Shown in pieces: positions 35,094 through 63,217 of a stretch of 64,000 bases of DNA. The position numbers were made by a program, and so were the translations under genes. The notes below the pieces were generated by a model that worked only from the letters and a program-made list of their open reading frames with translations, ran no database searches and was not told the origin of the DNA. Where the stretch lies: the IMG/VR virus record IMGVR_UViG_3300032322_001107, positions 8,850 through 72,849 of that record; one strand, 5' to 3'. Numbering within the stretch: the first letter of the stretch is position 1; each line of letters opens with the position of its first letter. This stretch comes from a virus.

Positions 35094-35337
35094 TACCCTT
35101 GCCCAAGATGGATCGTTTAATGGAACGGTTTATGACTTGGATTCGGGGCGGATACAGGTCATTAGTGGGTCTGTGGATATCAAGCCAAAGGAGGATACAT
35201 ATCTTTCTACCCTTCGTCGCATCAATGCGGAGTTGGCGGAATCAAACGCTCGTATGAGTGCGGAGATTACAGCCAACAATCAACTTTATGAACTGCGCGA
35301 GCAGACAAGGCTCCTGCGTAAAATTGCCGACCAATGA
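35056..35337 (+). CDS. Putative secreted protein
   Basis: Signal peptide MKKLLLLPLLLSNTLA|Q. Confidence 0.6.
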   Translation: MKKLLLLPLLLSNTLAQDGSFNGTVYDLDSGRIQVISGSVDIKPKEDTYLSTLRRINAELAESNARMSAEITANNQLYELREQTRLLRKIADQ

Positions 35338-36877: not shown

Positions 36878-36915
36878 GTTGCCACAATACATCCTATTAT
36901 GGCAGAAATCAAGAA

Positions 36916-40176: not shown

Positions 40177-40670
40177 TAAAAAAGCATACATATCAAGAAG
40201 TTTCAAAAATATTAGATTACAACCCAAGCACTGGTCGATTTTATAGAAAAATTAATACATCGGCCAATGGAAGAACTGGACTTGTAAAAGGATATATCAA
40301 TAACGCTGGATACAGAAAAACCAGCGTTTTGGATTATCAATATTACGATCATCATTTGGCTTGGTTGCTACATTATGGCGAATGGCCGCAAAAACAAATT
40401 GACCACATCAACAATAAAAAGTCGGATAACAGAATAAAAAATCTTCGACTTGCTACCGTTAGCCAAAACGGAATGAATCGGTCTTTTCAAAAAAATAGCA
40501 TATCAAAAGAAAAGTGTATTCATTGGAAAAAAGAAAAGAAAAGGTATTTGGTCAGAATTGGCGTTAATAGAAAATATCGACATTTTGGATATTTTAAAAC
40601 AGTTGAAGAAGCAATTGTGGCTAGAGACAAAGCCATCAAAAAACTTCATGGCGAATTCGCCAAAGTTTAA
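40173..40670 (+). CDS. HNH-AP2 homing endonuclease
   Basis: IDHINNKKSDNRIKNLR plus an AP2 domain ending HGEFA; AT-rich. Confidence 0.9.
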   Translation: MIKKHTYQEVSKILDYNPSTGRFYRKINTSANGRTGLVKGYINNAGYRKTSVLDYQYYDHHLAWLLHYGEWPQKQIDHINNKKSDNRIKNLRLATVSQNGMNRSFQKNSISKEKCIHWKKEKKRYLVRIGVNRKYRHFGYFKTVEEAIVARDKAIKKLHGEFAKV

Positions 40671-42064: not shown

Positions 42065-43906
42065 ATGGCAACAGTTGATCAAGGAATAGAGAAATACGGG
42101 AGGTTGTGGTTACCCAAAGACGGACAGGCGATTACGCCAATCCGCATCGAGATGGATGCCTTCTTGCAGGGACTTACTCCCGAAGAGGGAGGACTCGGAA
42201 AGGCTCGCCATTATCGTAATATTGTCTCTGCTATATGGCCCACATTCCAGTGGCACAGGTGGGCAGAACTCAGCGCACAAGCATTCTGCAACCAAATTTA
42301 CGAGGTAGATGAGGCTACGGGCAATCGATTCGTCCGAAGCGTGACAGGTCTCGCTGGCGGAACAGACTCTGGCAAATCCTACGGGATGGCGGCGTTTGCG
42401 CTGGTCAATTGGTTCTGCGACCCCATCAATACGATGACAATTGTTGTCTCTACGTCCAAGATTGACGCCAAACAGCGTATCTGGGCGGCACTGGTCAAGA
42501 TGTATCGTGAAGCCCGAAACATGGGGTTGGCATCTGGCAGGCTCATTGAGTCCATGGATATCATCAAGCTCTCAGACGAAGAGGGGGCCGTGATCGATCC
42601 CGAAACAGGAGTTAGTGATGCCTCATCTATTATGCTTTTGGCGGCGGGTGATGAATATAAAGATGACGCCCAGAAACGACTTCAGGGTAAGAAGAATCGT
42701 CGCATCGTGTTAATCGTGGATGAGCTTCAGGATTGCGCGAATTCTGTAATTACCCAAGCTATTTGGGGATTTAAGGGCGCACAGGAGCTTTACATTGTAG
42801 GCGCGGGAAACCCTGCCTCCATCTTCGATCCCCACGGGAAGTTTTGCGAACCCATCAAGGGATGGATGAGCGTGGATGAGGAAACTCCGAACTGGAAGAT
42901 ACGGGTAGCGGGAATTGAAGGTGTTTGTATTCGATTTGACTCTGAAAAAGACAACCCAAACCAGCAGTCCTTCGATGCTGGTAAGGGACTGCGCTATCCG
43001 TTTCTTCCAAAACCCAATGATGTGGCGTTGGCCCGAAAAGAACTCGGAGAACTTAATCCCCAGTATTGGAGAAAGTTTCGGGGCTTCTGGCCTCCTGCTG
43101 ATGCTGATGACTCCACGATTGTCTCTGATATCCTATTGGCTCGCCATGGTGCGCTAGACAAACCGATCTGGGATGGAACCCCGAAAGATATTGCTGGCAT
43201 TGACCCAAGCTATACTGAGGGCGGTGATAGATTTGTGTTTACCCACCTTAAGTATGGAAAATTAATCAGTGGAAAATGGGCGATAGCTGTTGAGAAACAG
43301 TATGTCCTCAACCGAAGGGCGGGGTCTCAAGAAGACTTCCAATACGAAATGATCCAACAAATCCACGATCTCTCTCTTAAGTTGGGAATTCCAAATCAAT
43401 GGATGGGCGTAGACGCCTCGGCTGGTGGTATCTTTTGGTCGATTGGAGAAAGGGAACTGCTAAAGGGTTGGCACGCAGTAAGTTTTGCAGGAGCGGCTTC
43501 AGATCTTCCAGTAAGCGCCCAATACGCCATGAGGAACGAAGCCACGGGAAAACCCCAAGTAGGCAAGGAATTGTTCCACAACATGGCGTCAGAACTTTGT
43601 TTCGCCGCCCGATACTTCTTGGAGTGTGAACAACTCAAGGGAATCACCCCAGATCTGGCATGGGAGATGACCCAGAGAAAGTATGTGCGCCGAACCCGCA
43701 AGATTATCATTGAATCCAAGACCGACATGAAAAAACGGATTGGAAAGTCTCCCGACTTATTTGACTCATTTGCAGTCGGATTGTTTGTCGCCCGCAAGGT
43801 ATTTGGAGCCATGGCTGGTAGTGAGGCGATTGAGGAAAAGAAACGGCTCAATAAAGAAACGTTCAAGAAGCTTAAACAAGCCTTGACTATAAGGAAGAAT
43901 TGGTAG
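42065..43906 (+). CDS. terL: Terminase large subunit
   Basis: GGTDSGKS (Walker A), LIVDE (Walker B), GAGNP, and nuclease motifs GIDP, GVDA, SPDLFDS. Confidence 0.92.
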   Translation: MATVDQGIEKYGRLWLPKDGQAITPIRIEMDAFLQGLTPEEGGLGKARHYRNIVSAIWPTFQWHRWAELSAQAFCNQIYEVDEATGNRFVRSVTGLAGGTDSGKSYGMAAFALVNWFCDPINTMTIVVSTSKIDAKQRIWAALVKMYREARNMGLASGRLIESMDIIKLSDEEGAVIDPETGVSDASSIMLLAAGDEYKDDAQKRLQGKKNRRIVLIVDELQDCANSVITQAIWGFKGAQELYIVGAGNPASIFDPHGKFCEPIKGWMSVDEETPNWKIRVAGIEGVCIRFDSEKDNPNQQSFDAGKGLRYPFLPKPNDVALARKELGELNPQYWRKFRGFWPPADADDSTIVSDILLARHGALDKPIWDGTPKDIAGIDPSYTEGGDRFVFTHLKYGKLISGKWAIAVEKQYVLNRRAGSQEDFQYEMIQQIHDLSLKLGIPNQWMGVDASAGGIFWSIGERELLKGWHAVSFAGAASDLPVSAQYAMRNEATGKPQVGKELFHNMASELCFAARYFLECEQLKGITPDLAWEMTQRKYVRRTRKIIIESKTDMKKRIGKSPDLFDSFAVGLFVARKVFGAMAGSEAIEEKKRLNKETFKKLKQALTIRKNW

Positions 43907-43922
43907 ATTCTATTTGCCATTT

Positions 43923-44285
43923 ATGGCTCAACTACCGATTGCCGAAGCTGATATCTGCATATTTCAGGGGGCAACTTTCAATCAAACATTGTTTTATGAG
44001 ACGGGCGAACCCTCGGCTCCAGTTAATCTTGCGGGGTTTACGGCTAAGATGCACATTCGGTCAAAGCCCGAATCCAAAGCACTAATTCTTGAATTGTCCA
44101 CAAGTAATGGTAGAATCGTATTGAATGAAGCTACGGGATCTATTAGACTGTTTATTTCGGCATCTGACACGGCATCGCTCTCGGTCTGTGATAAAGCCGT
44201 ATATGACCTTGAGCTATACAACGGGGCCGTCACAACCCGAATCCTGCAAGGCAATGTTATCATTTCACCAGAGGTTACACGATAA
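43923..44285 (+). CDS. BppU-like fibre/baseplate adaptor
   Basis: QGATF...VNLAGFTAKMHIR...YDLEL...RILQG..ISPEVTR. Confidence 0.7.
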   Translation: MAQLPIAEADICIFQGATFNQTLFYETGEPSAPVNLAGFTAKMHIRSKPESKALILELSTSNGRIVLNEATGSIRLFISASDTASLSVCDKAVYDLELYNGAVTTRILQGNVIISPEVTR

Positions 44286-44609
44286 ATGAGCAAGATTTGT
44301 ATCCCCATTCCTTCTTCAAGTGTTATAGGTGTATCCTCAACCCCGATTTCCACACCAAGTGTTAATATCCTTCGTGTCGAACCATCAATTACAGGACTTG
44401 ATGGCGGAGGAACAACCAATCTAGACAGCCTTAATACAGTCAGTGGAACCTATGCGGTTGGTATTGTTATTTTTCTTATTCTCGATGGGCTTCCTGCCAT
44501 CTATCAACTGACCAATGGCACCGATGCCCAAAATCTTCCTTTTGTAGTCCGACCCAACGACTATGATAGCCAAACAGGAACCAAGCGGGTTTGGAAGCGA
44601 CTAATGTAA
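44286..44609 (+). CDS. Virion-associated hypothetical protein
   Basis: LDGGGTTNLD...RPNDYD...WKR; located in the fibre block. Confidence 0.6.
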   Translation: MSKICIPIPSSSVIGVSSTPISTPSVNILRVEPSITGLDGGGTTNLDSLNTVSGTYAVGIVIFLILDGLPAIYQLTNGTDAQNLPFVVRPNDYDSQTGTKRVWKRLM

Positions 44610-44611: not shown

Positions 44612-47035
44612 ATGAAATATATTCTCTCACTTATTATCAGTGGAGCCTTGGTTGTTTCGGGCTTCGGGCAAACTCGGAACGTTCTTGTCGGCACCAATAA
44701 TGCCGTAGTCCAACCGACTAATTTTTGGAGCGCGGACGCTTCCAACGCTCGCACGGGACTAGGATTGGGAACCTCCGCTACCAATCCCGCATCCGCATTT
44801 CAACCTTCTTCTGCCACGCTTTCCAACTTGGCTGCGAGTAATGGCGGAAACTTAACAAATCTTCAGTCCGCAAATTTAGTTGGCATTATTCCAGCGTCCA
44901 ACATTCCGTCAACCACGTTAACCAATATTTCTGGAACTCTTTCGATTGCTTCTGGCGGAACGGGAGCCACCAACGCGGGTGGGGCAAGGACGAATTTGGG
45001 GTTGGGGTGGACGGCTCTTGCCAATACCAATAGTGCAACATCGCTTATGGGGCTTGTTGTTGATACTGGAGCAACAAACATTTTTTATGTAACTGGGGCT
45101 GGGAGTCCATCAAATTCTATTATTTTTACCAATCCCGTTGAATTGTCTGGAGGGGCACATGGATTGAGAATTGCTGATGGAACAAATGAAGCTTGGGATT
45201 TTCCAAATGACGCAGCGGCTGAGTTTTATTATTCGTTTGGGTTTTATGGGGCCAATGCTTCAAATAACGCAGCAACAGCAAGAACAAACCTTGGATTGGG
45301 AGCCACATGGCTCACAAACACTAATGCTCCAGTATTTGTGAATACCAATGGAGAAGTGGTGAGTCCGACCAACTTTTGGCAGGTAGCCCCGATATCCACA
45401 ACTGTCCAATACCAAACAAATGTTACTGGAACATCAACAAATGCTGCAACAAACAGTCGCAATCTATTTCTGTTCAGTCTTTCTCCTTCGGTGTCGGGAA
45501 TTACCAATACGGTGACATTGCCCACAAATCCCGCAACCACATTTGAAGGAGATAGAGCTACTGTTACCCATCTTGCCCAGACAACCAACGCAGTGACGGC
45601 TATCAGGCAATTGGGCGCAGCAACCAATATTATTACGCTCAACCAGCTTGATGAAACGGTTCTATTGATGTATCGCAGCGGAGCATGGATATTGGCCGAC
45701 AACATTTCCTACATTGAGCCTATCTATTTTTCTGGCACTAACGCAGCAGCCAATGCGGCGGCAAGCAGAACCAATTTGGGGCTAGGAGCGACTTGGCTCA
45801 CGAACACCAACGTCACAAATTTCCGCACGGCGATTGGGTTGGGGGAAGAGGACTCTCCGCAATTTGATGATATAAGCTCATCTTCGGCAAATATTTCGCA
45901 AATTTCTGCCAATGCTATAGGCATGAATGGTGCAATTTCTTGGACTGGAACAAACGCAACAGCAAACGCCGCCACAACCCGCACCAATTTGGGATTGGGA
46001 TCAACAAATAATGTTATTTTTTTATCTTTGATAACGGCAAATACCAATGGATCACTCATTAATTTGGATCCATCTGAAACGCTTGGGCAGTCCTTGACTG
46101 GTATTGGAAGGACTTCAAATTCAATTTATTTTACTTATGCAGCATTTACATATCTAGAAGCCAACACCAATGGGTGGACAGTTCATAGGCCGTTTTCATT
46201 TTCGTCAGACGGGATAAGGCTTGGAACATTAACAAACTTGCAACTTGCTTCTACTAATATTGTTACATTCGCTGGCATCACCAACAACGGCGACATCACA
46301 ATCAACAGCACCACGGCCAGCAACGGCCTGCTTTACATCCGCCGCACCAACAACGAACCCTTCCTCGGCCTTGCCAACCTCATCGCGTCGAACAATACGA
46401 CGATCAGCAACGAAACTTTATTTCGCGTAGGCGTTTCAGAGGCGACCAACAAAGCCGCGCAATTCGGCTTCCGTAGCACCAACACCAACGGCAACGGCGT
46501 GGCGGTGTTCAGCGTGTTTGGTTACAACGCGCTGATGATGATCGGCCCCTCCGATCCCGAAGCAGGAACTAACCCCATCGAAGCAACGGTGTATTCCGTT
46601 AATCCAACAAACAAGGTGATGACTCTTATTAGAACCAACACTGGAGCTACGATGTTCCATCGTCCTATTGAGTTTGAAAATACCACCAACCAAGCTGTGA
46701 CTCGCACCAACCTTGGCCTTGGCCAAACCAATAGCGTCACATTTTCTTCGCTAACTCTTTCAAGTGATCTAACTTTTGGCAGTGGAGATAACATTGTTCT
46801 GTCCACAACAAATGGGACGAAGATTGGAACAGCAACAAACCAGCTTCTTGGCTTTTATAATCAAACTCCTATTGTGCAACCATCCACAACAGGAGTTACC
46901 ACCAACGGATTTACTCAGGGAAGCGGAAACAATGTCCACCCAAATAGCACATTTACTGGTGGCATAGGAACAAATGCATACACAATTTCGGATATTGTAG
47001 CGCATTTGAAATCGCTTGGGCTGATCGCTCCTTAA
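44612..47035 (+). CDS. Asn/Thr-rich fibre-like protein with N-terminal signal peptide
   Basis: Repeated (A)RTNLGLG motifs, C-terminal LKSLGLIA, N-terminus MKYILSLIISGALVVSGFG|Q. Confidence 0.75.
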   Translation: MKYILSLIISGALVVSGFGQTRNVLVGTNNAVVQPTNFWSADASNARTGLGLGTSATNPASAFQPSSATLSNLAASNGGNLTNLQSANLVGIIPASNIPSTTLTNISGTLSIASGGTGATNAGGARTNLGLGWTALANTNSATSLMGLVVDTGATNIFYVTGAGSPSNSIIFTNPVELSGGAHGLRIADGTNEAWDFPNDAAAEFYYSFGFYGANASNNAATARTNLGLGATWLTNTNAPVFVNTNGEVVSPTNFWQVAPISTTVQYQTNVTGTSTNAATNSRNLFLFSLSPSVSGITNTVTLPTNPATTFEGDRATVTHLAQTTNAVTAIRQLGAATNIITLNQLDETVLLMYRSGAWILADNISYIEPIYFSGTNAAANAAASRTNLGLGATWLTNTNVTNFRTAIGLGEEDSPQFDDISSSSANISQISANAIGMNGAISWTGTNATANAATTRTNLGLGSTNNVIFLSLITANTNGSLINLDPSETLGQSLTGIGRTSNSIYFTYAAFTYLEANTNGWTVHRPFSFSSDGIRLGTLTNLQLASTNIVTFAGITNNGDITINSTTASNGLLYIRRTNNEPFLGLANLIASNNTTISNETLFRVGVSEATNKAAQFGFRSTNTNGNGVAVFSVFGYNALMMIGPSDPEAGTNPIEATVYSVNPTNKVMTLIRTNTGATMFHRPIEFENTTNQAVTRTNLGLGQTNSVTFSSLTLSSDLTFGSGDNIVLSTTNGTKIGTATNQLLGFYNQTPIVQPSTTGVTTNGFTQGSGNNVHPNSTFTGGIGTNAYTISDIVAHLKSLGLIAP

Positions 47036-47048
47036 ACACATTTTATAA

Positions 47049-47417
47049 ATGACCAACTACTGGAGACTTGAGAGGGATATTGATATCGTCCAAGGAAAAA
47101 CTTGGACGGCGAAGTTTCGTTATCTGACAAAATCCTGCAAGGGCAAGTCAAATGTCCCAGTCAATCTTTCGGGCTACGGGGCGAACATGGTCATTCGGGA
47201 GTGCGCCAAGGATAGTGCTACTTTGCTCACATTGACCGCAGGAAGCGGGATTACGCTAGGATCTGATGGGACTATCGAAATAGTAATGACGGCCACGCAG
47301 GCGTCAAATCTGACGGCGGGAGACAATGTCTACGAAATCGAACTAAGCCAAGGCTACACCTATATCGCATTTGCCACAGGTAAAGCCAAAGTCTACGAGG
47401 AGATTGCCCGAAGCTAA
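47049..47417 (+). CDS. Second BppU-like adaptor paralogue
   Basis: QGKTW...[13 protein letters not shown]...YEIEL, similar to 43923-44285. Confidence 0.7.
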
Positions 47418-47418
47418 A

Positions 47419-50400
47419 ATGGAAGTCATCGAAGTAGTAGAGAGGGAAGTTGAGGTCATTGAGTTGATCGAACGTGGCCCCGCTGGCCCTACAGGCCCGC
47501 AGCCCGACATCAATTACACTGTAGTCTCGTCAGCCCGCACCCTAGAGGCAGCAGATTTAATCGCAGCAGACACCTCTGGAGGGGCGTTTACTCTTACTCT
47601 TCCACTTAATCCTAGTAATGGAGATGCGGTAGACATCTTTGATTTCTCGGAAACCTTTGATACGAACAATCTGACCATCGCCCGAAACGGACAAAGAATC
47701 GAATCTATCGAAGAAGATCTTATCTGTAACGTCGAAGGAGCCTACTTCACCTTAATCTACACTGGAGCAACAAGAGGCTGGCAAGTATTACCACGATATG
47801 GAACTTCGGGCGGTGGAGGCGGGGAATCTGTTCTTACAAATACAGGAGATATGCTTTATCGGGGTGTCGGTGTCAACGCCCGCCTCCCTATCGGAACCGC
47901 AGGACAGGTTCTGAAAGTAAACAGCGGAGCCACGGCCCCCGAATGGGGAACCATCTCCACAGCACCCAGTGGCCCCGCAGGAGGAGACCTCACTGGAACT
48001 TACCCCAATCCCACTTTAACCACTTCAGGGGTAAGCGCGGGAACCTATACCAAGGTCACCGTTGATGCCAAGGGGCGGGCGACTGTCGGAGCTTCCGCCA
48101 CAAAGTCTGATGTTGGACTCGGTAATGTCGATGACACAAGTGATGCCTCAAAACCCGTCTCAACAGCTACCCAGACTGCGCTAAATCTAAAGGCTAATCT
48201 AGACTCCCCCGCGCTCACTGGAACCCCGACAGCACCTACCGCTGCTGCTGGAACTGACACCACACAAGTCGCCACTACGGCATTTACGCTGGCAAATCGC
48301 GGAGACCGATACCTCACAACCAGCACATCTTCTCATTCGCTTACTACAGGTTCCAAAACATTTACTGTACAGTCGGGACTTAGTTATACTCCAACACAGG
48401 ACGTTACCATTGTATACGATGCAGCCCGTCATATGCATGCTATTGTTACCAGCTATTCTGGAACATCATTGGTAGTTAATGTCGATACCGTAGAAGGTAG
48501 TGGCGGGCCATTTACAGCTTGGACAATCAATGTGGGTGGGCTTTTGACAGCACAGGGGGCACTACTTGAGGTTAACAATCTCAGTGATGTCAGCAACCCC
48601 GCAACCGCATTAACCAATATCGGTGGTGTACCAACAAGCCGATCTATCAGCGCGGGAACGGGGCTTACTGGCGGTGGAGATCTTACGGCTAATAGAACGC
48701 TCACAGTTAGCTATGGATCTACAGCAGGAACTGCCTGCCAAGGCAATGATGCGCGGTTGAGTGATGCGAGGACGCCTGCGGCTCACGCCGCCAGTCACAG
48801 AGCGGCGAAGCCCGCCGTTGCCGCCAGATACACAGGCATTGGCGATAACGAAACCTTTTCCGAAGAAGTAGTAATTATAGCAAACACCGCAGGGACGGCG
48901 GGCAATAGCATCACGCTGACCTTTGATGGCGTGGATGATGTGGATACCGTGTTGGCCGCTTGGAACGCAGCCAATCCGTCAAACCAAGCCACATTAGACA
49001 GTGGCGATGGCGAACAAGTCCCCGCCGATGGCGACTTTCTTACGCTTTCGGGCGGAGTTGCGGCGATTGTTGGCGGCAGTGATCCGTTTGCCAACATCAA
49101 CCAAGACCTTGGCACGACCGACCAAGTAAATTTTTCCACACTTACCCTAACCGCTCCCCTCAATGGCGAAGTCATTCGTATCAATGGGGTTGATCCATTG
49201 GGCAGTGACACAGGCTTCGCCGTCTACAACACCACAGGCAACCAATCCAACTCGTTCTATTTTAACAAAAACAACTCCTTTATCGGCATTGGCGTAGGAG
49301 CGAGCCGAAATTACATTCAGTCCTCGCAGCCAGTGGATGTTGGCGCGGAGCTTGCTGTGGCGGGGCCAATAAACATCACGGGGGCGAGCGCATCTACTCA
49401 CAAGGCAACCACTCGCACCAACCTTGGCGCAGCCGCCTCTGGCTCCATCACCTCCAGCGGCCTCACGCAATCCACCGCAAGAATTTTAGGCCGCACGACA
49501 GCCAGCACAGGCTCCATCGAGGAGATCCAAATCGGCTCGGGCCTTTCGCTTTCGGCGGGGGAGTTGTCTTCCACAGTCAGCGCGGGCATCCCTGCAACCC
49601 TCCTCGACGCCAAAGGCGATCTCATCGTGGCCTCGGCGGCGGATACGGCGGCGCGGCTGGCGGTGGGCGGGACGAATGGTCATGTGCTGACGGTGGACTC
49701 GACGGAGACGCTGGGGGTGAAGTGGGCGGCGGCGGCAGGAGGCGTCTCTGGCGTCGATAGCACCACCGACGATGTCTTCAGCGTATCGGGCAGCAACCTC
49801 GTTGCCGACGATGGCGGGCTAATCGACTCGGCCAATCCTTTCGTTCAGTGGAACGACACATCGGGCAAGCTCGTCTACGCCAACCCGCTCAGTCGGCCAT
49901 CTGGCGCTTTCTATGTCGGGCTGGCTCCGACTACCACGGCGCTCGGAACGCGGGCGATCAACATTCAAAGCAACAGGGCGGGCGCGACAAGCGTTGCCGC
50001 CAACACTGACGCCATTGTCATTGGAGACGCCGCCACCACAGGCTCAAGCTCGGTTGCCATCGGCCTCCGCGCATCGGCGGGAGGAAGTAGTGTGGCAATC
50101 GGACTTGATGCCACCACTTTTAGCAATCCCAGTGGTGCAATCGCCATCGGTCGCTCTGCAAGCGCAAGTGGAACAAGTTGGCCTATAGCCCTTAACGGAA
50201 CCGCTTCCGAATCTGACGCTATTGCCATCAACGGCACGGCCTCAAATCTTAACAGCGTAGCCATCGGGCGCGGAATTACAGCGAACTTGATGGGCCAATT
50301 TTTCACGCGCTCCTTTGGCGTGAATTATTGGGGCGGGCAAACAACCAACAACACGGCGACCATATTAAATCTGGATGCAGGCGCAGGAGGAACCGCTCGC

Positions 50401-50697
50401 TTCACCATCGCCGCCAACACCGCCTTGGCCGTGGACATCACCCTTGTAGCGCGGCGATCTGGAACACAAGACAAGTGGCTGGTTGCCCGCCGTTTTTTGG
50501 GCATCCGTCGAGACGCAACGAACACCGCGCTGATCGGGTCAGTTGGAAACTACGGACTTGATCAAAGCGCAGGATCTCCGACTTGGACATTTGCGTTGAC
50601 CGCCGACACGACCAACAATGCGCTTCAGTTGCAAGTTACGGGGGAGACAGGCGAGACCGTAGAATGGAGAGCAACTGCATTTTATAGAGTTGTCTAA
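47419..50697 (+). CDS. Mosaic tail fibre protein
   Basis: Collagen-like [59 protein letters not shown], and YadA-head-like SVAIG repeats. Confidence 0.85.
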
Positions 50698-50699
50698 TT

Positions 50700-51233
50700 A
50701 TGAACCCCAAAGAAATCTACAACGTATTACTTACCGAGCCGAAAGTTATCGACGGCAAAACGTGGCACAACCTCTCTTACCAGATAACCCGCGACGAAGC
50801 GGGCAAGATCGAAGTCACCGAGTTTGGCTGGCCGACTAAGCTGACGATTTACGAGCAGGACGGCCCCGAACTGGATGCGCTGGACGAGGCAACGGTGAAA
50901 GCCGCCGTTGAAGCCGCGCTGCCTGTGGATGAGGGTTATGTGATTCCGCCGCCGCCGACTCCGTATGTTGAGGCTTTCACGCCCGAAGCATGGGTGACGC
51001 GGCACCTTACATCCCTGCAAATTCTTTCCCTGCAACGTCTGGAAATGGCCCTGCTTCAAGCGAGCTTGCCGCTCGGCACGAACATGGCCGCGCTCAAGGG
51101 TTGGCTGGAGGCCATGATGTTGGCGAGCGTTGACCCGACTCCACGCACATTTCCTGCCCCGCCGTGTTCCTACGAGGTTGCGTCAGCGGAGGCGGTGGCT
51201 GGGTTGCAATCAGGTCAAAATCCCGAAACATAA
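50700..51233 (+). CDS. Putative tail-fibre assembly/chaperone protein
   Basis: 177 aa, immediately after the fibre gene and sharing its higher-GC composition. Confidence 0.5.
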   Translation: MNPKEIYNVLLTEPKVIDGKTWHNLSYQITRDEAGKIEVTEFGWPTKLTIYEQDGPELDALDEATVKAAVEAALPVDEGYVIPPPPTPYVEAFTPEAWVTRHLTSLQILSLQRLEMALLQASLPLGTNMAALKGWLEAMMLASVDPTPRTFPAPPCSYEVASAEAVAGLQSGQNPET

Positions 51234-51237
51234 TCTT

Positions 51238-53481
51238 ATGGCAAACCTCTCTTCATTCTATCCCCAGCCAGTAGTACCCAATGCTATAGAAGTTACTGCT
51301 TCTGGGTCTACAACTGCAAGAACTCTATCAACGAGGTTTGCCGACATAGTAAATGTTAAAGATTTTGGTGCGGTGGGTGACGGGGTTTCCGATGATTGGT
51401 TAGCTATTCAGAGGGCAATTGCCGCAGCGGCAGATGTACCAAACGCCGCAACATTAACAATGCCAGCAGCACTGGGTGTTTCAGATCCAATGTCTGTCAA
51501 CGCCTTTGGCATATGGATTCCTAAACTTTTTTATTTTGGTGTTTCTAGACGTATTGTCTATTTCCCTTCTGGCCAATACGCAATTTCTAGGCCACTTGTT
51601 GCCAGCGGAGAACAAATTCATTTATTGGGATACAGTGGACGCATGTCTCGCATTAATGTGAGTAAAAACGCAGCAACATCCGCTGGTCTTGCAACAATGT
51701 TTAATGGTGTTGAACCGCTTAACGAATGGGTTTATAGAGAATTAGTTGCCGTTGATGGCACAGAGCCAGTTGGATTTTGGTCTCTGTGGCCAGATTACGG
51801 TCATGGAAATCGCATTGAAGGTCTTGGAGTTGGTTTAACAGAACTTGATGAAAACAATCAAACGACAATCCGACCATTTGATACAGTGTCAGATGTTCTG
51901 GCATATTTGCCGTTTACAGAAGGCCCTCCGCCATTTGCAAAAGTTTCTGGAACACAGGGAACAAACACTCTAACTATTAATACAGAAATTCGGTGCTGGG
52001 TTGGAATGAAAATAAAACCCAGAAATCATGCCACAACTTACACTGTTGCATCTTTTTCTGTTGGTTCAAATAGCGTAACAATAACAACAGTCGAAACAGT
52101 TACTAGCAATATCGTTAATGAAATGGCGCTTCGTGGAAAATCGGCAGCAAATGGAATTCTTTTAAATGGCGGAGAAAATATGGCAATTATTAGGTGCTTT
52201 GCCGATGGATTTTATTATGGTTCTGGAATTTCGCTATTAGGAGGTTCCCCAGCAGCAATTATTGATAATTGCATGGTTAATTCTAATAAAGTTGGTTACG
52301 AAATAGAATCTGGGCCATCCATACTTATAAAACCTTCTGGTGATAACAATCAAACATTTGTTCGCGCTGGATTTAAATCTCTAGCCACACTTTATATTGA
52401 AGGAATAAAAATGGAGAATTTTGGATCACCTCCATTTTTTGGTTTTGAAACTGGAATAAAAGAGATTTTTCAACTTGGAAGTTATGGTGGTCAAGGGCGA
52501 CCATCCAGCATGAAAATTGTTGGAGGATCTATCAATATTAATGTAAGCCCCAATCTTGAAGACTCCGTTATTTATGCTGAATACGCTACGGTTTACCCAG
52601 CAAATATACAAACCAGCGGACTAAACATGCAAAACCAATGCTCGATTATTCATCAAAGGCGCAACCTTTTGAATAATGATATTTTGAAACGCATTGGAAG
52701 GTCTGATTGGCAAAGCACACAGCATGCAGAACGTTATGGTGGTAAATCTGAACGAATGAGCGATGGATTGGTAGATTGGTATGTTTATGGAGATAGGCGC
52801 AATGCTGTTTTTGACTTGATAGATAATCGCGGAGGAATAGTGGCAGATTCTGGATCTGGAAGACCTTCAGGTAATGCAACATTTGAAAGAGACGGACAAA
52901 CAGTAACGTTTACTCAGGCAAATCACGGACTACAAGTTGGAAATCAAATTTTTGTGGCACAGTATATTTCTACCGACCCACCAAATACATTTTTTACAGC
53001 AACGGGAAGCGCATCTGATGGAAGCTTTACTGGATCGTTATTTGTTAAATCTGTAAACGGAAACGATTTTACATGCACCGTAGCCAATAGCGGTCCAGAT
53101 GAAGGAACCGTAAAGCTTATTTATGGAAAATATTGGGATTTTCACAGTTTTTACGACAATAGGCATATTGTTCAAATACCAAGCGATTTGGGTTCTCCGA
53201 ACATTAATAGGGAAGTTTTTGTTTTTAAAGATTTACAAAATAGAAATCTGTCTGGATTGCGAGTTGCTACAGCTACTGAAGGTGATTGGTGGGCAAGTAA
53301 ATCTCTAAACATAGGCGGAACCATCGATAGCCCCTCATCCCGAATCTTGACTGGCACAGGCGCACCTAGTGCGCCCGCACCCAATGGATCTATCTATCTC
53401 AGAACAGATGGAGATGCTTCCAGCACAGTATATGTGAGAGCGGGAGATCAATGGAGGCCACTTGGAGCTTATGAACCTTAA
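51238..53481 (+). CDS. Tailspike / pectate-lyase-like beta-helix protein
   Basis: VNVKDFGAVGDGVSDD..AIQ.AI, VYFPSGQY; C-terminal GTGAP..APNGSIYLRTDG. Confidence 0.85.
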   Translation: MANLSSFYPQPVVPNAIEVTASGSTTARTLSTRFADIVNVKDFGAVGDGVSDDWLAIQRAIAAAADVPNAATLTMPAALGVSDPMSVNAFGIWIPKLFYFGVSRRIVYFPSGQYAISRPLVASGEQIHLLGYSGRMSRINVSKNAATSAGLATMFNGVEPLNEWVYRELVAVDGTEPVGFWSLWPDYGHGNRIEGLGVGLTELDENNQTTIRPFDTVSDVLAYLPFTEGPPPFAKVSGTQGTNTLTINTEIRCWVGMKIKPRNHATTYTVASFSVGSNSVTITTVETVTSNIVNEMALRGKSAANGILLNGGENMAIIRCFADGFYYGSGISLLGGSPAAIIDNCMVNSNKVGYEIESGPSILIKPSGDNNQTFVRAGFKSLATLYIEGIKMENFGSPPFFGFETGIKEIFQLGSYGGQGRPSSMKIVGGSININVSPNLEDSVIYAEYATVYPANIQTSGLNMQNQCSIIHQRRNLLNNDILKRIGRSDWQSTQHAERYGGKSERMSDGLVDWYVYGDRRNAVFDLIDNRGGIVADSGSGRPSGNATFERDGQTVTFTQANHGLQVGNQIFVAQYISTDPPNTFFTATGSASDGSFTGSLFVKSVNGNDFTCTVANSGPDEGTVKLIYGKYWDFHSFYDNRHIVQIPSDLGSPNINREVFVFKDLQNRNLSGLRVATATEGDWWASKSLNIGGTIDSPSSRILTGTGAPSAPAPNGSIYLRTDGDASSTVYVRAGDQWRPLGAYEP

Positions 53482-54037
53482 AAATACACTTCTAGCATTG
53501 CTGGCGATGTCTTCCTCGCTCTGGGGACAGACGATCACCACAAATACTAATGATCTAACCACCCCTTGGTCTAATTCGTTTTCGGGATTTCAAGGTATAA
53601 CCAACACAGGTCGGGCGTTTCGCGTCACGGCATCCAATCTCACGACCAACATCACAGTGGCTCTTTCCGACTCTACAAACTGGCAAGTATCGACGAACAA
53701 CACCGCCTTCACCAATACCCTGTCAATGGCGAGTAATTCCTCCAACGCTCTCTTATGGGTAAGGATGAGCGGGTCAAATGTCGGAACATTCACTAATATC
53801 ATCAGCCTGACCAGCACTGGAACGAACGGAACAAATACCAACAACGTAACAAACACTACCACAATTACGGGAACGGTGGTCGCTTCGTTGGCTTCGGTCA
53901 TGTATGATAAGGCCACAGCACTCATTGTCCGTCCGACCAATTTGGGACTGAATACCAACATTACTTTCGTTGACGCCGCAACCAACACCAATACAGTATC
54001 GATCTCCAATGGTATTATTACTGGCTGGACACAATAG
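53471..54037 (+). CDS. Asn/Thr-rich protein with signal peptide and fibre-type C-terminus
   Basis: MNLKNTLLALLAMSSSLWG|Q; ends TVSISNGIITGWTQ. Confidence 0.7.
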   Translation: MNLKNTLLALLAMSSSLWGQTITTNTNDLTTPWSNSFSGFQGITNTGRAFRVTASNLTTNITVALSDSTNWQVSTNNTAFTNTLSMASNSSNALLWVRMSGSNVGTFTNIISLTSTGTNGTNTNNVTNTTTITGTVVASLASVMYDKATALIVRPTNLGLNTNITFVDAATNTNTVSISNGIITGWTQ

Positions 54038-54064: not shown

Positions 54065-56341
54065 ATGGCAACAGGCAACGCAGAACTGGAAAATCTACCA
54101 GAGAGTGGTAGTCCACCGAAAAAACGCATCAAATCATCTGATAACCTTGTGGCAATCGCTAACAAGTATATCGAACAAGATGAGGATGCGGCGTATCTTA
54201 GGGCGCGGGCGCAAGCCCTAGTCAATGGCGAAGCCCCCTACGATGCCGAAGAATTGAAGAGCAAAGGACTAACCCATGTGGTCAATGCCAACTTCGGGGA
54301 GGCCAATGCCATCATGGAAGCAGCCTTGGCCCCGTATATTGAACTCCAAAATGGGGTTCCCCGCATCGCCAACGTCATCATGGAATCTTATCAGGGGGAC
54401 TCCAATGAAGACTCCGAAATCATCTCTGAGGAGTTTGATTGGATGCTTAAGGAGTGGAGTGATCATGCCTACAATATGCAACTCCTTTCCCGCGAGTTTG
54501 TGGGTGACGGGGTCGGGGTGGCTATGTGGCCCGATGAAAGGTCAATCTTCTGGGAGCCTTGCGGACTTAAAGATTTCAAAGTAGCCCGTGACACCAAAGT
54601 ATCAGATGAGTCCATTGAAGTTGCTATCGTCCAACGCTCCATGAGCGTGAGTGAACTTTACCGCTATATCCGCAATCCCAAAGCCGCGAAAGAACTTGGC
54701 TGGAATCTCAACGCAGTTAAGCAGGCAATTTGGAAGGCTTCGACCAAGCGCGACCAGTGGAAGAACTATACCGCTCACTGGGAAGACTTTGAGCGCGAAA
54801 TCAAGGAGAATGACCTCTACGCTGGGGAATCGGCCTACCACCGCGCCCAACTAATCTACGGCTACAACCGCGAATTCGATGGTAAGTTTACACAGCTTAT
54901 CGGATCTCGCGATTCTTCGGATTTCCTCTACGAGCGTTATAGCCGCTATGGAAATGTGAACCAATGCTTCGTCATCTTTACCTACGGAGTCGGACAGGGA
55001 ACCTTCCATACGATTCGCGGACTCAAGCAGAAGATCTACAACCAAATCCAGATTTCCAATAGGGTTCTTTGCCAGTCAGCCCAAGCCGCCATCACTTCTG
55101 GACTTATTCAGTTGCAGGGGGACGCCGAAGCCATCCAAGACTTTCAATATATTGAGGTCGGGCCTTATACGTTCATCCCTAGCGGGCTGACCCCGATCCA
55201 ACTTCAACCGCCATCCATTGCTACTCAGGGTCTTCCTGTCTACAATCTTATGAGCCAAGTGTTGCAGAACAACACGGGTAGCTATCGTTCGCGTCAGGCC
55301 ACTCCAGACGGCCAAGCCCGTTCTGCCACGGAAGTTGTCCAGCAAGCCCGCCAAGAGTCCACGCTCAACGCCGCTGCATTGGAGCTTTTCTACACTCCGT
55401 ATAACAAGCTTCTGACCGAACAATACCGCAGGGCGGTCAATCCTCTTCTAACTGCTAATGATAAGGGTGGACAACTCGCCCTTGAATTCCGCCGCCGCTG
55501 TGCGCGTCGAGGAGTTTCTATTGAGCGTATGCGCCAGTTTCTCAAGGTCACGGCCTTCCGCGCCATGGGTGACGGAAGCCCCGTAATGACCGAAATGGCA
55601 AGCAAGCAACTCATGGAGCTTTATTCCTTGATGGACGAGAAGGGCAAAGAAAACACCTTGCGTTCCGTTATTGCTGGTATCTCTGGAGTGGGTTGGCAGA
55701 AAGTTAATCTTTTTGTATCTGATAAAGGCCCGCGCCGTGTGGTTGATTTTGACATCGCCAACCTTGAGAATGGCAACCTCCGTCAGGGTATTCCTCAGAT
55801 GGTTCACGATAGCCAGAATCATGCTGTGCATATTGAGGCCCACATCCCGATGATTGCCGAGATCATTGAGGCCCACAGGCAGCAGCAGATGGCCGATGAG
55901 CAAGCAATGCAAATCTTGCGCCCCGCCGCAGACCATGTGACCGAACACCTCGTCTTCTTCTCAAATAATAGCTATCGGGCGCAGGAAGTCCGCGAACTCA
56001 AACGCCAACTCCAAAACCTCACGGCTTATATCGATGAGCTTGAACAGCAGGTGATCAATCGCATGATGGCCCAACAAAGCCAAGCCCAAGAACAGGCTAT
56101 GCAGGCTGGGCAACAACCGCAGGGACAGATTGATCCCAAGATGGAAATGGAAATGCAAAAAGCGCAACTCAAGTTGGCAGAAATGCAGGAAAAACGCATG
56201 ATGAACCAAGAAACTCATCAGCAGAAAATGGAAACTATTCGTCAGCAGATGGCTCTTAATGATCTTAAAACGCGCAGTTCTATTCTTGAGAAAACAGCCA
56301 GACCCGCAGGCCGTCCGCCGATGGCTGCACAAACAGCTTAA
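54065..56341 (+). CDS. Portal protein
   Basis: 758 aa. RSATEV motif of P22/T7-like portals, H..HI..H motif, Gln-rich barrel tail; lies upstream of scaffold and capsid. Confidence 0.8.
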   Translation: MATGNAELENLPESGSPPKKRIKSSDNLVAIANKYIEQDEDAAYLRARAQALVNGEAPYDAEELKSKGLTHVVNANFGEANAIMEAALAPYIELQNGVPRIANVIMESYQGDSNEDSEIISEEFDWMLKEWSDHAYNMQLLSREFVGDGVGVAMWPDERSIFWEPCGLKDFKVARDTKVSDESIEVAIVQRSMSVSELYRYIRNPKAAKELGWNLNAVKQAIWKASTKRDQWKNYTAHWEDFEREIKENDLYAGESAYHRAQLIYGYNREFDGKFTQLIGSRDSSDFLYERYSRYGNVNQCFVIFTYGVGQGTFHTIRGLKQKIYNQIQISNRVLCQSAQAAITSGLIQLQGDAEAIQDFQYIEVGPYTFIPSGLTPIQLQPPSIATQGLPVYNLMSQVLQNNTGSYRSRQATPDGQARSATEVVQQARQESTLNAAALELFYTPYNKLLTEQYRRAVNPLLTANDKGGQLALEFRRRCARRGVSIERMRQFLKVTAFRAMGDGSPVMTEMASKQLMELYSLMDEKGKENTLRSVIAGISGVGWQKVNLFVSDKGPRRVVDFDIANLENGNLRQGIPQMVHDSQNHAVHIEAHIPMIAEIIEAHRQQQMADEQAMQILRPAADHVTEHLVFFSNNSYRAQEVRELKRQLQNLTAYIDELEQQVINRMMAQQSQAQEQAMQAGQQPQGQIDPKMEMEMQKAQLKLAEMQEKRMMNQETHQQKMETIRQQMALNDLKTRSSILEKTARPAGRPPMAAQTA

Positions 56342-58234: not shown

Positions 58235-59461
58235 ATGTCAGCACAAACTGCTACTACTTGTGAAGCTATTAGCGACCAGTTTCAACGCGAGACTGGACGT
58301 ATCGCTCTTGGCACACATCGCTTGGGTCTTTACAAAGATCCCTATATGCGTTTTGTAACGCAATCCGCTTTCCCCGACAATATGGGAGCGGTTATCACCA
58401 ACACCATCGCCCAGCGCACTGTTGCCGTTGGCAGCGGATGGGAAGATGTCGGCGTCACTGGCGTTGATGGCGAAGCCAACTCCTGCTTGGCCCCCGTCAA
58501 AACCGTTGGCTATGCCTTCGATCAGAAAACCTTCAAACTCCGCCATCAGGCGATTGAGTCGAACTGGATCTGCTTGGAAGACGTTCGTACTTCGGCGTTC
58601 CCGATTGACGATGTCAACAACTACATCAAGATCCTTGCCGACAACGTCAATAAAGAGTGGGTTGAGCGTTATGACAACGACTACTACGCAGCCGTGACGA
58701 AAGTCTCTGTGGAACCTGGCCTTGCCGAGTCCACGGGATCGACTTTTGGTTCGCTGCCGAACCCGACCTCCGTCCTCACGGTTGGCGTCCTTCGCGAACT
58801 CTATGATCGTCTCTACCAGAACAACGCTGGTGATGACGGTGATGCGGTGACCGATGACGGCTCGCCTGTGTTCAACGTGTTTGCCGAACGCGCCACGATT
58901 GAGAACCTGATCAAACTCAACGAAGATGTCCGTCAGGATATCCGCTGGAGTGATCGCGTTAACGATCTGCTTGGTGCTAATGGCTCCTCGCTCCTGCCCC
59001 GTAAGGCTTACGGTGGATTTGTGTTCCATAGCCGCCCGTTCCCGAAGCGTTTCAACGACAACGGATCTGGTGGTTATACCGAAGTTGCTCCTTACGTCTC
59101 CACGACTGGCGCGACCAAGGGCACGAAGTTCATCATCAACCCCGCCTACAAGGCTGCGAAATACACCTCCACGGTTGTTTTCCATCCGAAGGCCGTTGAG
59201 TGGCTGGTTCCGAATCCTAACCTGAAAGTTGGAAAACTCGTTTACGATGCCCAAAACTATCGTGGCGATTTCCGCTGGATCAACGAGTTCGACCGCAATT
59301 GTAACCCTGACAAAAACAGCGGTTACTGGCGGGCGAAGATGGCGTGTGCCGCGAAACAGGTGTTCCCTGAATTCGGCTATTACCTGATTCATCTCCGTTG
59401 TAACCTCGCTAATGACTTGGTTGCATGCTCTTCGGGCAGTGGGTACGGGTACCTTAGTTGA
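58235..59461 (+). CDS. Major capsid protein
   Basis: 408 aa, strong codon bias, own promoter and downstream hairpin, position after the scaffold. Confidence 0.8.
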   Translation: MSAQTATTCEAISDQFQRETGRIALGTHRLGLYKDPYMRFVTQSAFPDNMGAVITNTIAQRTVAVGSGWEDVGVTGVDGEANSCLAPVKTVGYAFDQKTFKLRHQAIESNWICLEDVRTSAFPIDDVNNYIKILADNVNKEWVERYDNDYYAAVTKVSVEPGLAESTGSTFGSLPNPTSVLTVGVLRELYDRLYQNNAGDDGDAVTDDGSPVFNVFAERATIENLIKLNEDVRQDIRWSDRVNDLLGANGSSLLPRKAYGGFVFHSRPFPKRFNDNGSGGYTEVAPYVSTTGATKGTKFIINPAYKAAKYTSTVVFHPKAVEWLVPNPNLKVGKLVYDAQNYRGDFRWINEFDRNCNPDKNSGYWRAKMACAAKQVFPEFGYYLIHLRCNLANDLVACSSGSGYGYLS

Positions 59462-59482
59462 CCAATTCGGGTTAAATAAAGA

Positions 59483-59520
59483 TTGACTCACTAGAGGGGG
59501 TGGCGTAAGCTGCCCCCTCT
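59483..59520 (+). terminator. Capsid-gene terminator hairpin overlapping a promoter for the HNH gene
   Basis: 12-bp stem with GTAA loop (59493-59520) overlapping TTGACT-17-TAAGCT. Confidence 0.65.
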
Positions 59521-61774: not shown

Positions 61775-62059
61775 ATGAAATCATTCTTTGCCAAAATCTG
61801 GGGGATTACCTCAAATGTCTTCAACTTCTTCCTTCCTGTGCTTCGGGAAATTGCCTCCTCTTCGGTAGCAGTCCTTCTCCCAATTGCCTTGGAGATTGTC
61901 CAGTCGCTGGCCTCTACCGACAAGACGGGAGCCGAAAAACGCGAAACCGCAGTCAAAAAACTCACTGCTGCTGCTAAAAAGCAGGGCGTCAGTGCCTCTG
62001 AATCTCTGATTCGTTTTACTGTTGAATCGGCGGTTCAACGCTACAAGCTGGAGCAATAA
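61775..62059 (+). CDS. Putative holin (LL-H-like)
   Basis: TGAEKRETAV...IRFTVESAV pattern. Confidence 0.6.
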   Translation: MKSFFAKIWGITSNVFNFFLPVLREIASSSVAVLLPIALEIVQSLASTDKTGAEKRETAVKKLTAAAKKQGVSASESLIRFTVESAVQRYKLEQ

Positions 62060-62063
62060 CCAA

Positions 62064-62396
62064 ATGAAAGATAAAATCCTCGCATTTCTAGTTAGCAAGC
62101 TGGGCGGAGTTATCACCCCCCTCATTGCCATGGTGGTTGCCGCTATTGTCTCTCGCCTTGCTATGGTTGATCCCAAGTTGGCGGAGTCCGTTGATCAGGT
62201 CAGCCTTACTGGCTTCATTGTGGCTCTGCTTATTTCTATCGTTAACTACGTTACAAACGAAGTGAACGTCAGGGGCGTCAAGAAGATCCAAGCCTTGGTT
62301 CATACTGACGAGGATGGGGTGGCTGGGCCGATTACCTACACAGAGGTTCGTCGGGCTATCGCCATCAAAAAGCCTGTTCGCCGCAAGAAGAAATGA
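62064..62396 (+). CDS. Membrane protein with peptidoglycan-binding motif
   Basis: Two TM helices and the PG-binding signature IQ..V...DGVAGP.T. Confidence 0.65.
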   Translation: MKDKILAFLVSKLGGVITPLIAMVVAAIVSRLAMVDPKLAESVDQVSLTGFIVALLISIVNYVTNEVNVRGVKKIQALVHTDEDGVAGPITYTEVRRAIAIKKPVRRKKK

Positions 62397-62569
62397 GATT
62401 ATCCCATGAAACCCTCAAAGCAATACTCGTCCCAAGTCCCCCTAAAGAAGATCGCAGAAGTTTCCTTGTCCGTCTATTCAGTTCCCTCAAAGTTGGCATC
62501 CAAATCAAGCGGGGCCATGATGGAAAAATTACCAAGTCCTACCGAATCGGAGGTAGAGCGGATTTCTAG
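62393..62569 (+). CDS. Small hypothetical protein in the lysis module
   Basis: ATGA-coupled 58-aa ORF ending GGRADF. Confidence 0.5.
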   Translation: MRLSHETLKAILVPSPPKEDRRSFLVRLFSSLKVGIQIKRGHDGKITKSYRIGGRADF

Positions 62570-62623
62570 GAATTGGGATATTGGGCGGCGTAAGTGTTGC
62601 TGGTAACCTGATGGGGTCTACCC

Positions 62624-63217
62624 ATGTGGAAATCAATCCTGAAACTACTTGGGCTAGAGTCAAAAAGTGGCCCAGTGCCGTCCTTGCCGAATTCGCCATC
62701 CGCATCCAAGCCGAACTCCATGACAGAGCCGAATCCCGAAAAGAAAGCCTATCGGGAGACCAAGGTAACAACCCCGAACAAAAGCCGAAAGCCCATAAAG
62801 CCACAGGCCATCGTTCTCCACCACAGCGGGGGAACTTACGCAGGGGGAGTAAGCTGGATCAAAAACCCCGCAAGTAAGGTCTCCTACCATTGTTTAATTG
62901 CGCGAGATGGTCGCAGGACGGTCTTTGGTAACGACACAGATCGGATGTGGCATGCAGGGGTCAGCAGCTACAAAGGGAAGAAAGACGCCAATAGCTGGTC
63001 AATCGGGGTGAGCTTTGAGGGGGACAGCTACAAGGAACCTTTAAGTGATGACATGATTGAGAGTGCTATTGAGTACATCAAGCCAAGGATGGAAAAGTGG
63101 GGAATAGGACTAGACATGGTGTTGGATCATCGTATCATTTCCTCACCAAGGAAGAACGACCTCAATCCCGAAGAATACCGAAAATTTATCACCCGTCTTA
63201 AAAAAGCAGTAAAATGA
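62624..63217 (+). CDS. Endolysin, N-acetylmuramoyl-L-alanine amidase (Amidase_2)
   Basis: IVLHHS, VSYH, WHAG.S, N..SIGVSFEG, H...RK.D. Confidence 0.9.
   Translation: MWKSILKLLGLESKSGPVPSLPNSPSASKPNSMTEPNPEKKAYRETKVTTPNKSRKPIKPQAIVLHHSGGTYAGGVSWIKNPASKVSYHCLIARDGRRTVFGNDTDRMWHAGVSSYKGKKDANSWSIGVSFEGDSYKEPLSDDMIESAIEYIKPRMEKWGIGLDMVLDHRIISSPRKNDLNPEEYRKFITRLKKAVK

Follow-up and report, generated by a model that had tools for sequence, protein, structure and literature searches.

The virions of tailed phages are, according to the textbook view, assembled in the cytoplasm. Absence of leaders is furthermore taken, in the passages of one study that touch on the matter, as typical of phage proteins and as support for a phage origin (PMC6199706). 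In the Bacteroidota, substrates of signal peptidase I (SPI) have Gln at position +1 in an [AGS]|Q junction, a signature named the 'Q-rule' in sections of one report (PMC5837995), and the N-terminal Gln is expected, in parts of this and a further report, to become pyroglutamate in the periplasm (PMC5837995; PMC10653852). Five genes with Q-rule leaders, of unknown function, are mentioned for P. gingivalis prophages in a portion of PMC10367356. Here we describe two genes, P0001 and P0002, of a 64,000-nucleotide stretch of viral DNA (the window), which comprises bases 8850-72849 of the 72,849-bp virus record IMGVR_UViG_3300032322_001107; the record has a 123-bp direct terminal repeat and is rated complete.

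Leaders of the same kind are found in cultured Cellulophaga phages, where gp085, gp086 and gp087 of phi18:3 and gp091-gp094 of phi10:1 all have leaders ending in [SAG]|Q, and where all seven proteins are annotated, in GenBank/RefSeq notes alone, as 'structural/tail protein, based on experimental MS/MS proteomics' (MS/MS, tandem mass spectrometry). These annotations reportedly stem from Holmfeldt et al. 2013. The proteins gp079-gp081 of phi46:3 have the same leaders and are annotated by similarity only, while homologues of gp086 occur in 25 records, and in four further phages only its first 118 residues, leader included, are kept, at 82-83%. Leader-bearing proteins annotated as structural are thus already present in the public Cellulophaga records, where they apparently stand without comment. 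No paper on tailed-phage fibres that carry Sec leaders came up in a literature search, and the words 'signal peptide' do not occur in the crAss001 structural atlas (PMC10172136). The notion of the first-pass annotation of the window, that export of fibres would be an undescribed route, is in line with this search, although the public records already hold leader-bearing proteins with MS/MS annotations. A further system of relevance is LtfC, described in part of PMC10713586 as a dodecameric collar which keeps the lateral fibres in place in T5-like phages, the fibre's N-terminal strands pairing with it by beta-augmentation.

Compared with these systems, P0001 (44612..47035, 807 residues) and P0002 (53471..54037, 188 residues) are proteins of a late structural operon, composed of phage-fibre modules, and would be made as pre-proteins with Sec/SPI leaders of the Bacteroidota type. 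Judged from their sequences they are probably exported from the cytoplasm, and we estimate the probability that they are exported and then become part of the virion, a reading which leans on analogy, at about 50%. All positions given are those of the window, and features lie on the + strand unless marked otherwise.

Leaders and fibre modules of P0001 and P0002

The first-pass annotation had pointed out two genes in the fibre block that open with signal-peptide-like leaders before Gln, and the open reading frames (ORFs), their coordinates and their N-termini are all as it described them. The N-terminus of P0001 reads MKYILSLIISGALVVSGFG|QT, and its leader, residues 1-19 (44612..44668) with cleavage predicted before Gln20, can be divided into an n-region MK, an h-region YILSLIISGALVV and a c-region SGFG, such that K2 is followed by an uncharged core of 13 residues (residues 3-15) that constitutes the top hydropathy window of the protein (2.31). 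P0002 begins with MNLKNTLLALLAMSSSLWG|QT, and its leader, again residues 1-19 (53471..53527) with cleavage predicted before Gln20, has K4, the short core LLALLAM, and S-L-W-G ahead of Gln20; the h-region is not the top 15-residue hydropathy window of P0002 and is kept in relatives. The residues at -3 to -1 are G-F-G| in P0001 and L-W-G| in P0002, and Leu at -3 is tolerated by SPI. The leaders were judged by family comparison together with an n-h-c heuristic of our own, which is crude.

Relatives of P0001 were collected from viral contigs, on which 134 stretches matched, 133 of them encoding a relative, and 77 loci were kept. The leader is found throughout these related phages, directly in 64 of the 77 loci, at the true start of the ORF in 12 and cut by the contig end in the remaining one. 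Among 21 relatives (alignment A4) only six of the 19 leader positions are invariant, as compared with 27 of 34 in the mature module that follows; the changes in the leader exchange one hydrophobic residue for another, and G, A or S stands at -1. The mature module itself, residues 20-53, QTRNVLVGTNNAVVQPTNFW...GLGLG (44669..44770), is near-invariant and is a candidate docking module.

The wider family was gathered with phmmer, using residues 1-130 of P0001 against 1.84 billion representative proteins (clusters at 50% identity), which gave 297 representatives at E<=1e-3; the family figures on leaders, Cys and sequons given here refer to the 150 of these that were listed. A strict leader-[AGS]|Q pattern, which itself demands K or R, is matched by 124 of the 150. 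Another 19, in which the -1 residue is T, C or P or the c-region contains a polar residue, also show a hydrophobic N-terminus ahead of Gln. Gln is hence found at +1 in 143 representatives, and the other seven lack a complete N-terminus, four being fragments or starting inside the leader and three starting at a Met inside the N-terminal module. Among the matches listed there are 98 distinct leader strings, and position -1 is G in 53, A in 39 and S in 32 of the 124. Related mature modules are also preceded by leaders that are unrelated in sequence (MMKKLALTLLFGILGVGVYG|Q, MRYLSTILAALIFAAIAQA|Q, MKRFAAVLIAAAASAHA|Q and further families), and the residues from Gln onwards also differ between unrelated leaders (QTRNV, QTNFR, QTIKS, QTITT, QYTPL and QNAVM), while three representatives (P0166, P0167 and P0232) have an extra linker between cleavage site and N-terminal module, which is Pro/Thr-rich in two of them. 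Gln20 is likewise invariant in all 15 aligned members of the P0002 family (alignment A1) despite very different leaders. The architecture is kept while the strings diverge, and this is the evolution expected of a signal peptide and not of a segment that binds a partner. To judge from these alignments, the recurrence of one architecture in differing sequences is far more than chance, and the leaders of P0001 and P0002 are very probably functional export signals.

P0001 and P0002 are both Asn/Thr-rich (N 11.8% and T 14.7% in P0001; N 14.4% and T 21.3% in P0002). P0001 contains five R-x-NLGLG repeats and three copies of V-x-PTN, a motif of which P0002 has one copy, and the C-terminal ends are LKSLGLIAP and NGIITGWTQ, respectively, so that the first-pass annotation was accurate in these respects as well. 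The shaft of P0001 weakly matches tail-fibre families (phrog_10316, E 1e-4; phrog_1591, E 4.9e-4) and there is a weak match in the PDB to 7z47_D, a 'putative tail fiber' (E 0.0064). Its C-terminal module, residues 727-807, GTKIGTATNQ...LKSLGLIAP (46790..47035), is common to leaderless fibres: it shares 47.5% identity with the C-terminal end of CPKG_00048, a leaderless protein of Cyanophage KBS-S-2A, and the last 80 residues recur as a C-terminal or repeated module in fibre and tailspike proteins that other phages encode without a leader, among them proteins with pectate-lyase, beta-helix or laminin-G domains. Identity among relatives of P0001 falls from the N- to the C-terminus (96, 74, 52 and 26%), the median being 95.6% for residues 1-45 and 26% for residues 401-807, and a like gradient, from 82% down to 35%, is found in the neighbouring leaderless fibre. 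Family members range from about 500 to 1658 residues, with repeated shaft modules in the longest. By this sequence pattern P0001 evolves like a receptor-binding fibre, with a fixed N-terminal module and a hypervariable distal part.

In P0002 the polarity is reversed, and it is the C-terminal module, V-R-PTN ... ITFVD..NTNTVSISNGIITGWTQ (53918..54037), that is conserved, 19 of its 39 positions being invariant in alignment A1. There are 11 full-length relatives and 12 proteins that share the C-terminal module only, the module being borne by proteins of 115-538 residues with unrelated N-terminal parts. A leader-bearing protein ending in ISNGIITGWTQ/R is encoded directly before the portal-like gene in ten of the 12 related loci examined, and the smallest members of the family consist of a leader, a P0001-like N-terminal module and a P0002-like C-terminal module. 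No Pfam or PHROG family matches P0002; its AlphaFold2 (AF2) monomer model is all-beta and, at a predicted local distance difference test score (pLDDT) of 49, too poor for a fold search, and ESM-Atlas matches are all below 0.8, with BACON and Ig-like domains as leads only. A BLASTP similarity of about 26% between P0001 and P0002, obtained without composition correction, was taken as low-complexity noise. It can also be noted that leaderless tailspikes and other proteins encoded upstream of the leader-bearing slot (L085, L086, L089, L049 and L066; P0150) often end in a motif such as ...VTNDGELEVSK or ...VTIDTNGVLTATKQ; this motif resembles the ISNGIITGWTQ end, and the two may share a terminal strand. 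In one lineage (L107 and L109) holin-like genes come after the ISNGIITGWTQ gene, and beyond them lie two additional fibre-like genes with leaders, of 546 and more than 133 residues, such that the exported set adjoins the lysis cassette and not the portal gene.

As to the reason for export, the first-pass annotation had drawn attention to the many N-x-S/T triplets and had suggested, among other roles, maturation or glycosylation in the periplasm. The triplets are indeed present, but compared with shuffled sequences they are not enriched and are an effect of composition (17 against 22.5 expected in P0001, 8 against 8.4 in P0002), nor is there any enrichment of D-[ST]-[AILVMT], the O-glycosylation motif of Bacteroidota (0 against 2.1 expected in P0001, 1 against 0.7 in P0002). 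The proposal of exported fibre-like proteins accordingly survives as regards leaders that behave as Sec/SPI signals, fibre modules and a late operon, whereas its glycosylation part finds no support. Across the listed representatives the O-glycosylation motif occurs 150 times against 264 expected, a ratio of 0.57, as compared with 0.73-0.77 for control motifs and 0.84 for the same motif in leaderless fibres and spikes; this extra depletion could reflect selection to escape glycosylation once outside, but is a hint only, since the family sequences are related. Cys is absent from P0001 and P0002, and from everything after residue 25 in 140 of the 150 representatives, and with neither Cys nor sequon enrichment it is unlikely that this family is exported for the sake of disulfides or glycosylation. 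Neither protein has the Cys at +1 of a lipobox, and neither matches any Pfam family at E<=0.01, those of type IX sorting domains (Por_Secre_tail and similar) included.

Proposed export and docking, and alternative explanations

The route that we propose would begin with the leader taking the chain through SecYEG. SPI would then cut after Gly19 in both P0001 and P0002 and thereby expose Gln, which host glutaminyl cyclase would probably turn into pyroglutamate, and the mature proteins would fold in the periplasm. When holin and endolysin open the cell, periplasm and cytoplasm would merge and the proteins could meet tailed particles built in the cytoplasm, to which they might dock by way of the invariant N-terminal module of P0001 and the invariant C-terminal module of P0002, docking being the least certain step. 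The invariance of these end modules points to a conserved docking partner, for which the neighbouring LtfC-like protein and the small protein orf107 are candidates. Somewhat short of even odds is our estimate for the fuller proposition that in this lineage, and perhaps in phages of Bacteroidota generally, fibres are exported by Sec, capped with pyroglutamate and added at lysis with the N-terminus as docking strand, and that neither disulfides nor glycans are the reason.

The seven leader-bearing structural proteins of the Cellulophaga phages favour, by analogy, a place in the virion for P0001 and P0002 as well. Several observations nevertheless weigh against this reading. No similarity is detectable between Cellulophaga phi18:3 (bases 1-2000 and 30000-71443) and the proteins of the window phage, and the Cellulophaga precedent is therefore an analogy only; detection by mass spectrometry in a virion preparation could moreover stem from co-purifying envelope material. 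Searches with P0001 and the terminase found no cultured relative for the lineage. The pairing of the first LtfC-like gene with P0001 is positional only, since the one LtfC-like gene of distant lineages (L049 and L065) comes after the leader-bearing gene and before that of the leaderless fibre. The 77 loci belong to close kin, with terminases 98.5% identical, which accounts for a good part of their N-terminal conservation, and conservation alone therefore says little. Furthermore, three of the 150 representatives begin, as mentioned, at a Met within the N-terminal module, and leader-bearing proteins have no module in common with the leaderless fibres and spikes of the same phages, hitting only three of 138 non-leader ORFs of the same loci, two of these hits being truncated copies and one a 54-residue match, a pattern that would also suit a separate function outside the virion. 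The host assignment is affected as well: TAnnTTTG is the -7 promoter motif of Bacteroidota, and it is not enriched (37 observed, 39.3 expected), while a DnaB query gave one 29% match, in a metagenome-assembled genome, and no host match.

Among the alternatives, a role as an exported receptor masker or decoy outside the virion, which would bind the receptor or an envelope polysaccharide and so spare progeny from debris or block superinfection, is possible but in our opinion rather unlikely. It would account for leaders that look real across the family and for distal parts that are hypervariable, as expected of receptor binders, and it is in agreement with the absence of any module common to these proteins and the leaderless fibre and spike of the same phages, which could suffice as receptor-binding proteins of the virion, and with the position of leader-bearing genes next to lysis genes in the L107 and L109 lineage. 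Genes with Q-rule leaders in P. gingivalis phages are indeed thought, in the section of PMC10367356 concerned, to modify the host surface. A decoy would however have no obvious need for an invariant N- or C-terminal module, members of up to 1658 residues of repeated shaft modules would be a costly way of making one, and there is no lipobox Cys; the late structural operon encloses these genes, in close coupling with those for fibre, spike and portal, and the seven comparable Cellulophaga proteins are annotated as present in virions. It is improbable that the N-terminus stays uncleaved, be it as a signal anchor that tethers the protein until lysis, in the manner of signal-anchor-release proteins, or as a hydrophobic plug that inserts into an adaptor of the virion. 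The h-region of P0001 is Ser/Gly-rich, the N-terminus is conserved among close relatives, and AF2 places residues 3-17 of P0002 in a helix with low confidence, all of which would fit such a role; yet a plug should keep its sequence, whereas nothing is preserved across the 98 strings beyond charge, hydrophobicity, a small -1 residue and the Gln at +1. Of the first 53 residues, moreover, those of the leader vary most in close relatives, linkers are inserted between leader and N-terminal module, and the [AGS]|Q junction is the SPI pattern of Bacteroidota according to the relevant part of PMC5837995.

Less probable still is that the genes are host-derived cargo (morons) encoding surface proteins unrelated to virion or infection. 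The Asn/Thr-rich, low-charge composition is like that of bacterial surface proteins, and the local G+C content is 42% around P0002 as compared with 56% in the leaderless fibre, but relatives of P0001 or of the small family member P0025 are absent from a collection of one genome per species for 185,579 prokaryote species, the position in the operon is fixed (77 loci for P0001, and 10 of the 12 loci examined for the P0002 slot), and the C-terminal module is common to phage fibres. Finally, an artefact of gene calling, with the true starts downstream of the hydrophobic stretch, is scarcely credible. The three representatives starting at a Met inside the N-terminal module could be taken to speak for it, as could the database calls of the P0002 relatives P0010 and P0013, which begin at the position of Met13. 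P0001 however has no in-frame ATG, GTG or TTG between codons 13 and 52, and a downstream start is implausible because one at codon 52 would delete the invariant module, which is the most conserved part. Relatives of P0002 have V, A or I in place of Met13, and the 12 codons upstream of it stay open with conservative changes. We retain, with the probability given above, export followed by incorporation into the virion.

The late structural block and the phage

From terminase to portal the genes are all co-directional, with intergenic gaps of -11 to 27 nucleotides. The large terminase (42065..43906; phrog_2, E 2.2e-14) marks the upstream edge of the block and is followed by the first of two LtfC-like small beta-sandwich proteins (43923..44285), which matches phrog_1084 (E 6.4e-23) and phrog_3304 (E 9.7e-9), the latter annotated as 'L-shaped tail fiber protein assembly'. 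The match of this copy to the Pfam family PF23926 LtfC amounts to 17.2 bits and is thus under the 27-bit cut-off. Its ATG start is kept in relatives, the median identity across the related loci is 93.5%, and the protein is a candidate fibre-docking collar or adaptor. The second copy (47049..47417; phrog_1084, E 7.2e-17; phrog_3304, E 1.4e-4) has no Pfam match; the two copies are paralogues, 33% identical, and each lies directly upstream of a fibre gene set.

Between the first LtfC-like gene and P0001 lies orf107 (44286..44609), a small protein found in 73 of the 77 related loci, with its first 16 residues, and 28 of the first 33, invariant; the ATG of P0001 follows 2 nucleotides past the stop of this gene. 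It matches no Pfam or PHROG family, shows no relation in hhalign (probability 0.3) to the N-terminal part of the leaderless fibre, and no longer, fused form of it turned up, which is weak evidence. The AF2 model of orf107 (pLDDT 37) is too poor for a fold search, and a complex prediction of the first LtfC-like protein, orf107 and residues 20-110 of P0001, made without controls, scored 0.01 and gave no answer.

Downstream of the second LtfC-like gene, a leaderless tail fibre of 1092 residues from its ATG (47419..50697) matches phrog_1197 (E 2.5e-20) together with nine further PHROG families, among which five are of tail or tail-fibre type, and its N-terminus has no hydrophobic leader. A 177-residue protein without Pfam or PHROG match (50700..51233) precedes a leaderless tailspike-like protein with a beta-helix of the pectate-lyase type (51238..53481; PF12708, E 1.2e-13), for which 12 of the 14 PHROG families matched are of tail, tail-fibre or tail-spike type. 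The ATG of P0002 lies inside the end of this gene, with an overlap of 11 nucleotides, and P0002 is in turn directly upstream of a portal-like gene (54065..56341). The portal label is a lead only: it comes from ESM-Atlas feature matches of 0.96-0.97 to viral clusters that are partly assigned PF23899 SU10_portal or named P22-like portal, and the protein has no sequence match in Pfam, PHROG or the PDB. The lysis genes, a holin-like gene and an amidase endolysin (phrog_2609 holin, E 3.1e-7; phrog_1794 amidase, E 3.2e-13), are found further downstream (61775..63217). The G+C content of the fibre block is mosaic, with 56.4% at 48001-50000, in the leaderless fibre, and 41.7% at 52001-54000, which holds the end of the spike and P0002, and this fits modules of different origin.

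The phage is uncultured and probably has a host among the Bacteroidota. Its terminase has no match among 50,697 phage records, and the single match of P0001 in cultured phages is an 80-residue C-terminal stretch in a cyanophage. Motifs resembling the Shine-Dalgarno sequence occur upstream of only two of 30 genes, the background being 13%. A third, unrelated leader is found in an ORF at 35056-35337 (+), 93 residues from its ATG and contained in the ORF 34942-35337, the N-terminus of which reads MKKLLLLPLLLSNTLA|QDG, a classic leader with the A|Q junction known from leaders of the Bacteroidota type; the ORF has no family match, lies in the early/middle region and adjoins a ferredoxin-like gene (phrog_3704, 35334-35981).

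From the Atlas portal matches the phage is probably short-tailed. The window also holds a giant ORF of 3077 residues at 6183-15416 (+), without Pfam or PHROG family and preceded by four ORFs of 265-324 residues that are likewise without matches, and in a short-tailed phage the giant protein might be a virion protein that is internal or ejected. A 408-residue ORF (58235-59461, +) is the putative major capsid gene, a label given by position only, with no match in Pfam, PHROG or the PDB; a 417-residue ORF on the opposite strand (58238-59491, -) overlaps it almost exactly and is probably a shadow ORF. Four genes for HNH endonucleases are present, at 33263-33793 (-), 36299-36892 (-), 40173-40670 (+) and 59523-60248 (+), one of them inserted after the putative capsid gene.

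Comparison with known systems

Llp of phage T5, a small exported lipoprotein with a lipobox Cys that blocks the receptor and is encoded beside the receptor-binding genes, is the model for a decoy, from which P0001 and P0002 differ in having no Cys and in being built of fibre modules. Virion proteins with leaders that are exported before assembly are known from the filamentous phage Ff, namely pIII and pVIII, but Ff is non-tailed and assembles at the membrane without lysis, and its coat proteins show no homology to P0001 or P0002. The P. gingivalis prophage genes mentioned above are, in the part of PMC10367356 that treats them, like P0001 and P0002 phage-encoded, predicted to use the host Sec route and left with an N-terminal Gln; they belong however to temperate phages and are read there as surface modifiers, not as fibre-module proteins of a structural operon. 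The Q-rule substrates of Bacteroidota described in sections of PMC5837995 and PMC10653852 share with P0001 and P0002 the n-h-c leader, a small -1 residue and the Gln at +1, which is invariant in the present family, but those substrates are cellular envelope proteins, whereas P0001 and P0002 are phage proteins with tail-fibre modules encoded between terminase and portal.

The T5-like phage DT57C resembles the present locus in having an LtfC-like gene by the fibre gene, and a fibre whose N-terminus is conserved while its distal part varies, and its free fibre N-terminal strands augment the sheets of LtfC, as described in part of PMC10713586. LtfA of DT57C is unlike P0001 in having no leader and in being assembled in the cytoplasm; in addition, the LtfC-like match of the window is below the Pfam cut-off and the window phage, unlike DT57C, is probably short-tailed.

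If the proposed route is true, the accepted order and place of tailed-phage assembly would change, and infectivity of the phage would be tied to the Sec pathway and the glutaminyl cyclase of the host. Recognition of fibre genes would change as well, since a leader is usually read as evidence against a virion protein, at least in the passages of PMC6199706 that address it, and anyone producing such fibres for engineering or structural studies would have to omit the leader or express them in the periplasm. With its 297 clusters at 50% identity the family concerned is a large one.

The Cellulophaga phages phi18:3 (NC_021794, Pachyviridae) and phi10:1 (KC821618, Assiduviridae) differ from the window phage in gene order, and presence of their proteins in virions is recorded in database notes only. 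They are, on the other hand, also phages of Bacteroidota hosts, phi18:3 has a genome of similar size (71.4 kb), and in both phages consecutive late genes encode large fibre- or pectate-lyase-type proteins with [SAG]|Q leaders, of which gp086 likewise combines a leader and a conserved N-terminal part of about 100 residues with variable distal parts. Being cultured and having the same feature, these phages make the question of export directly testable.

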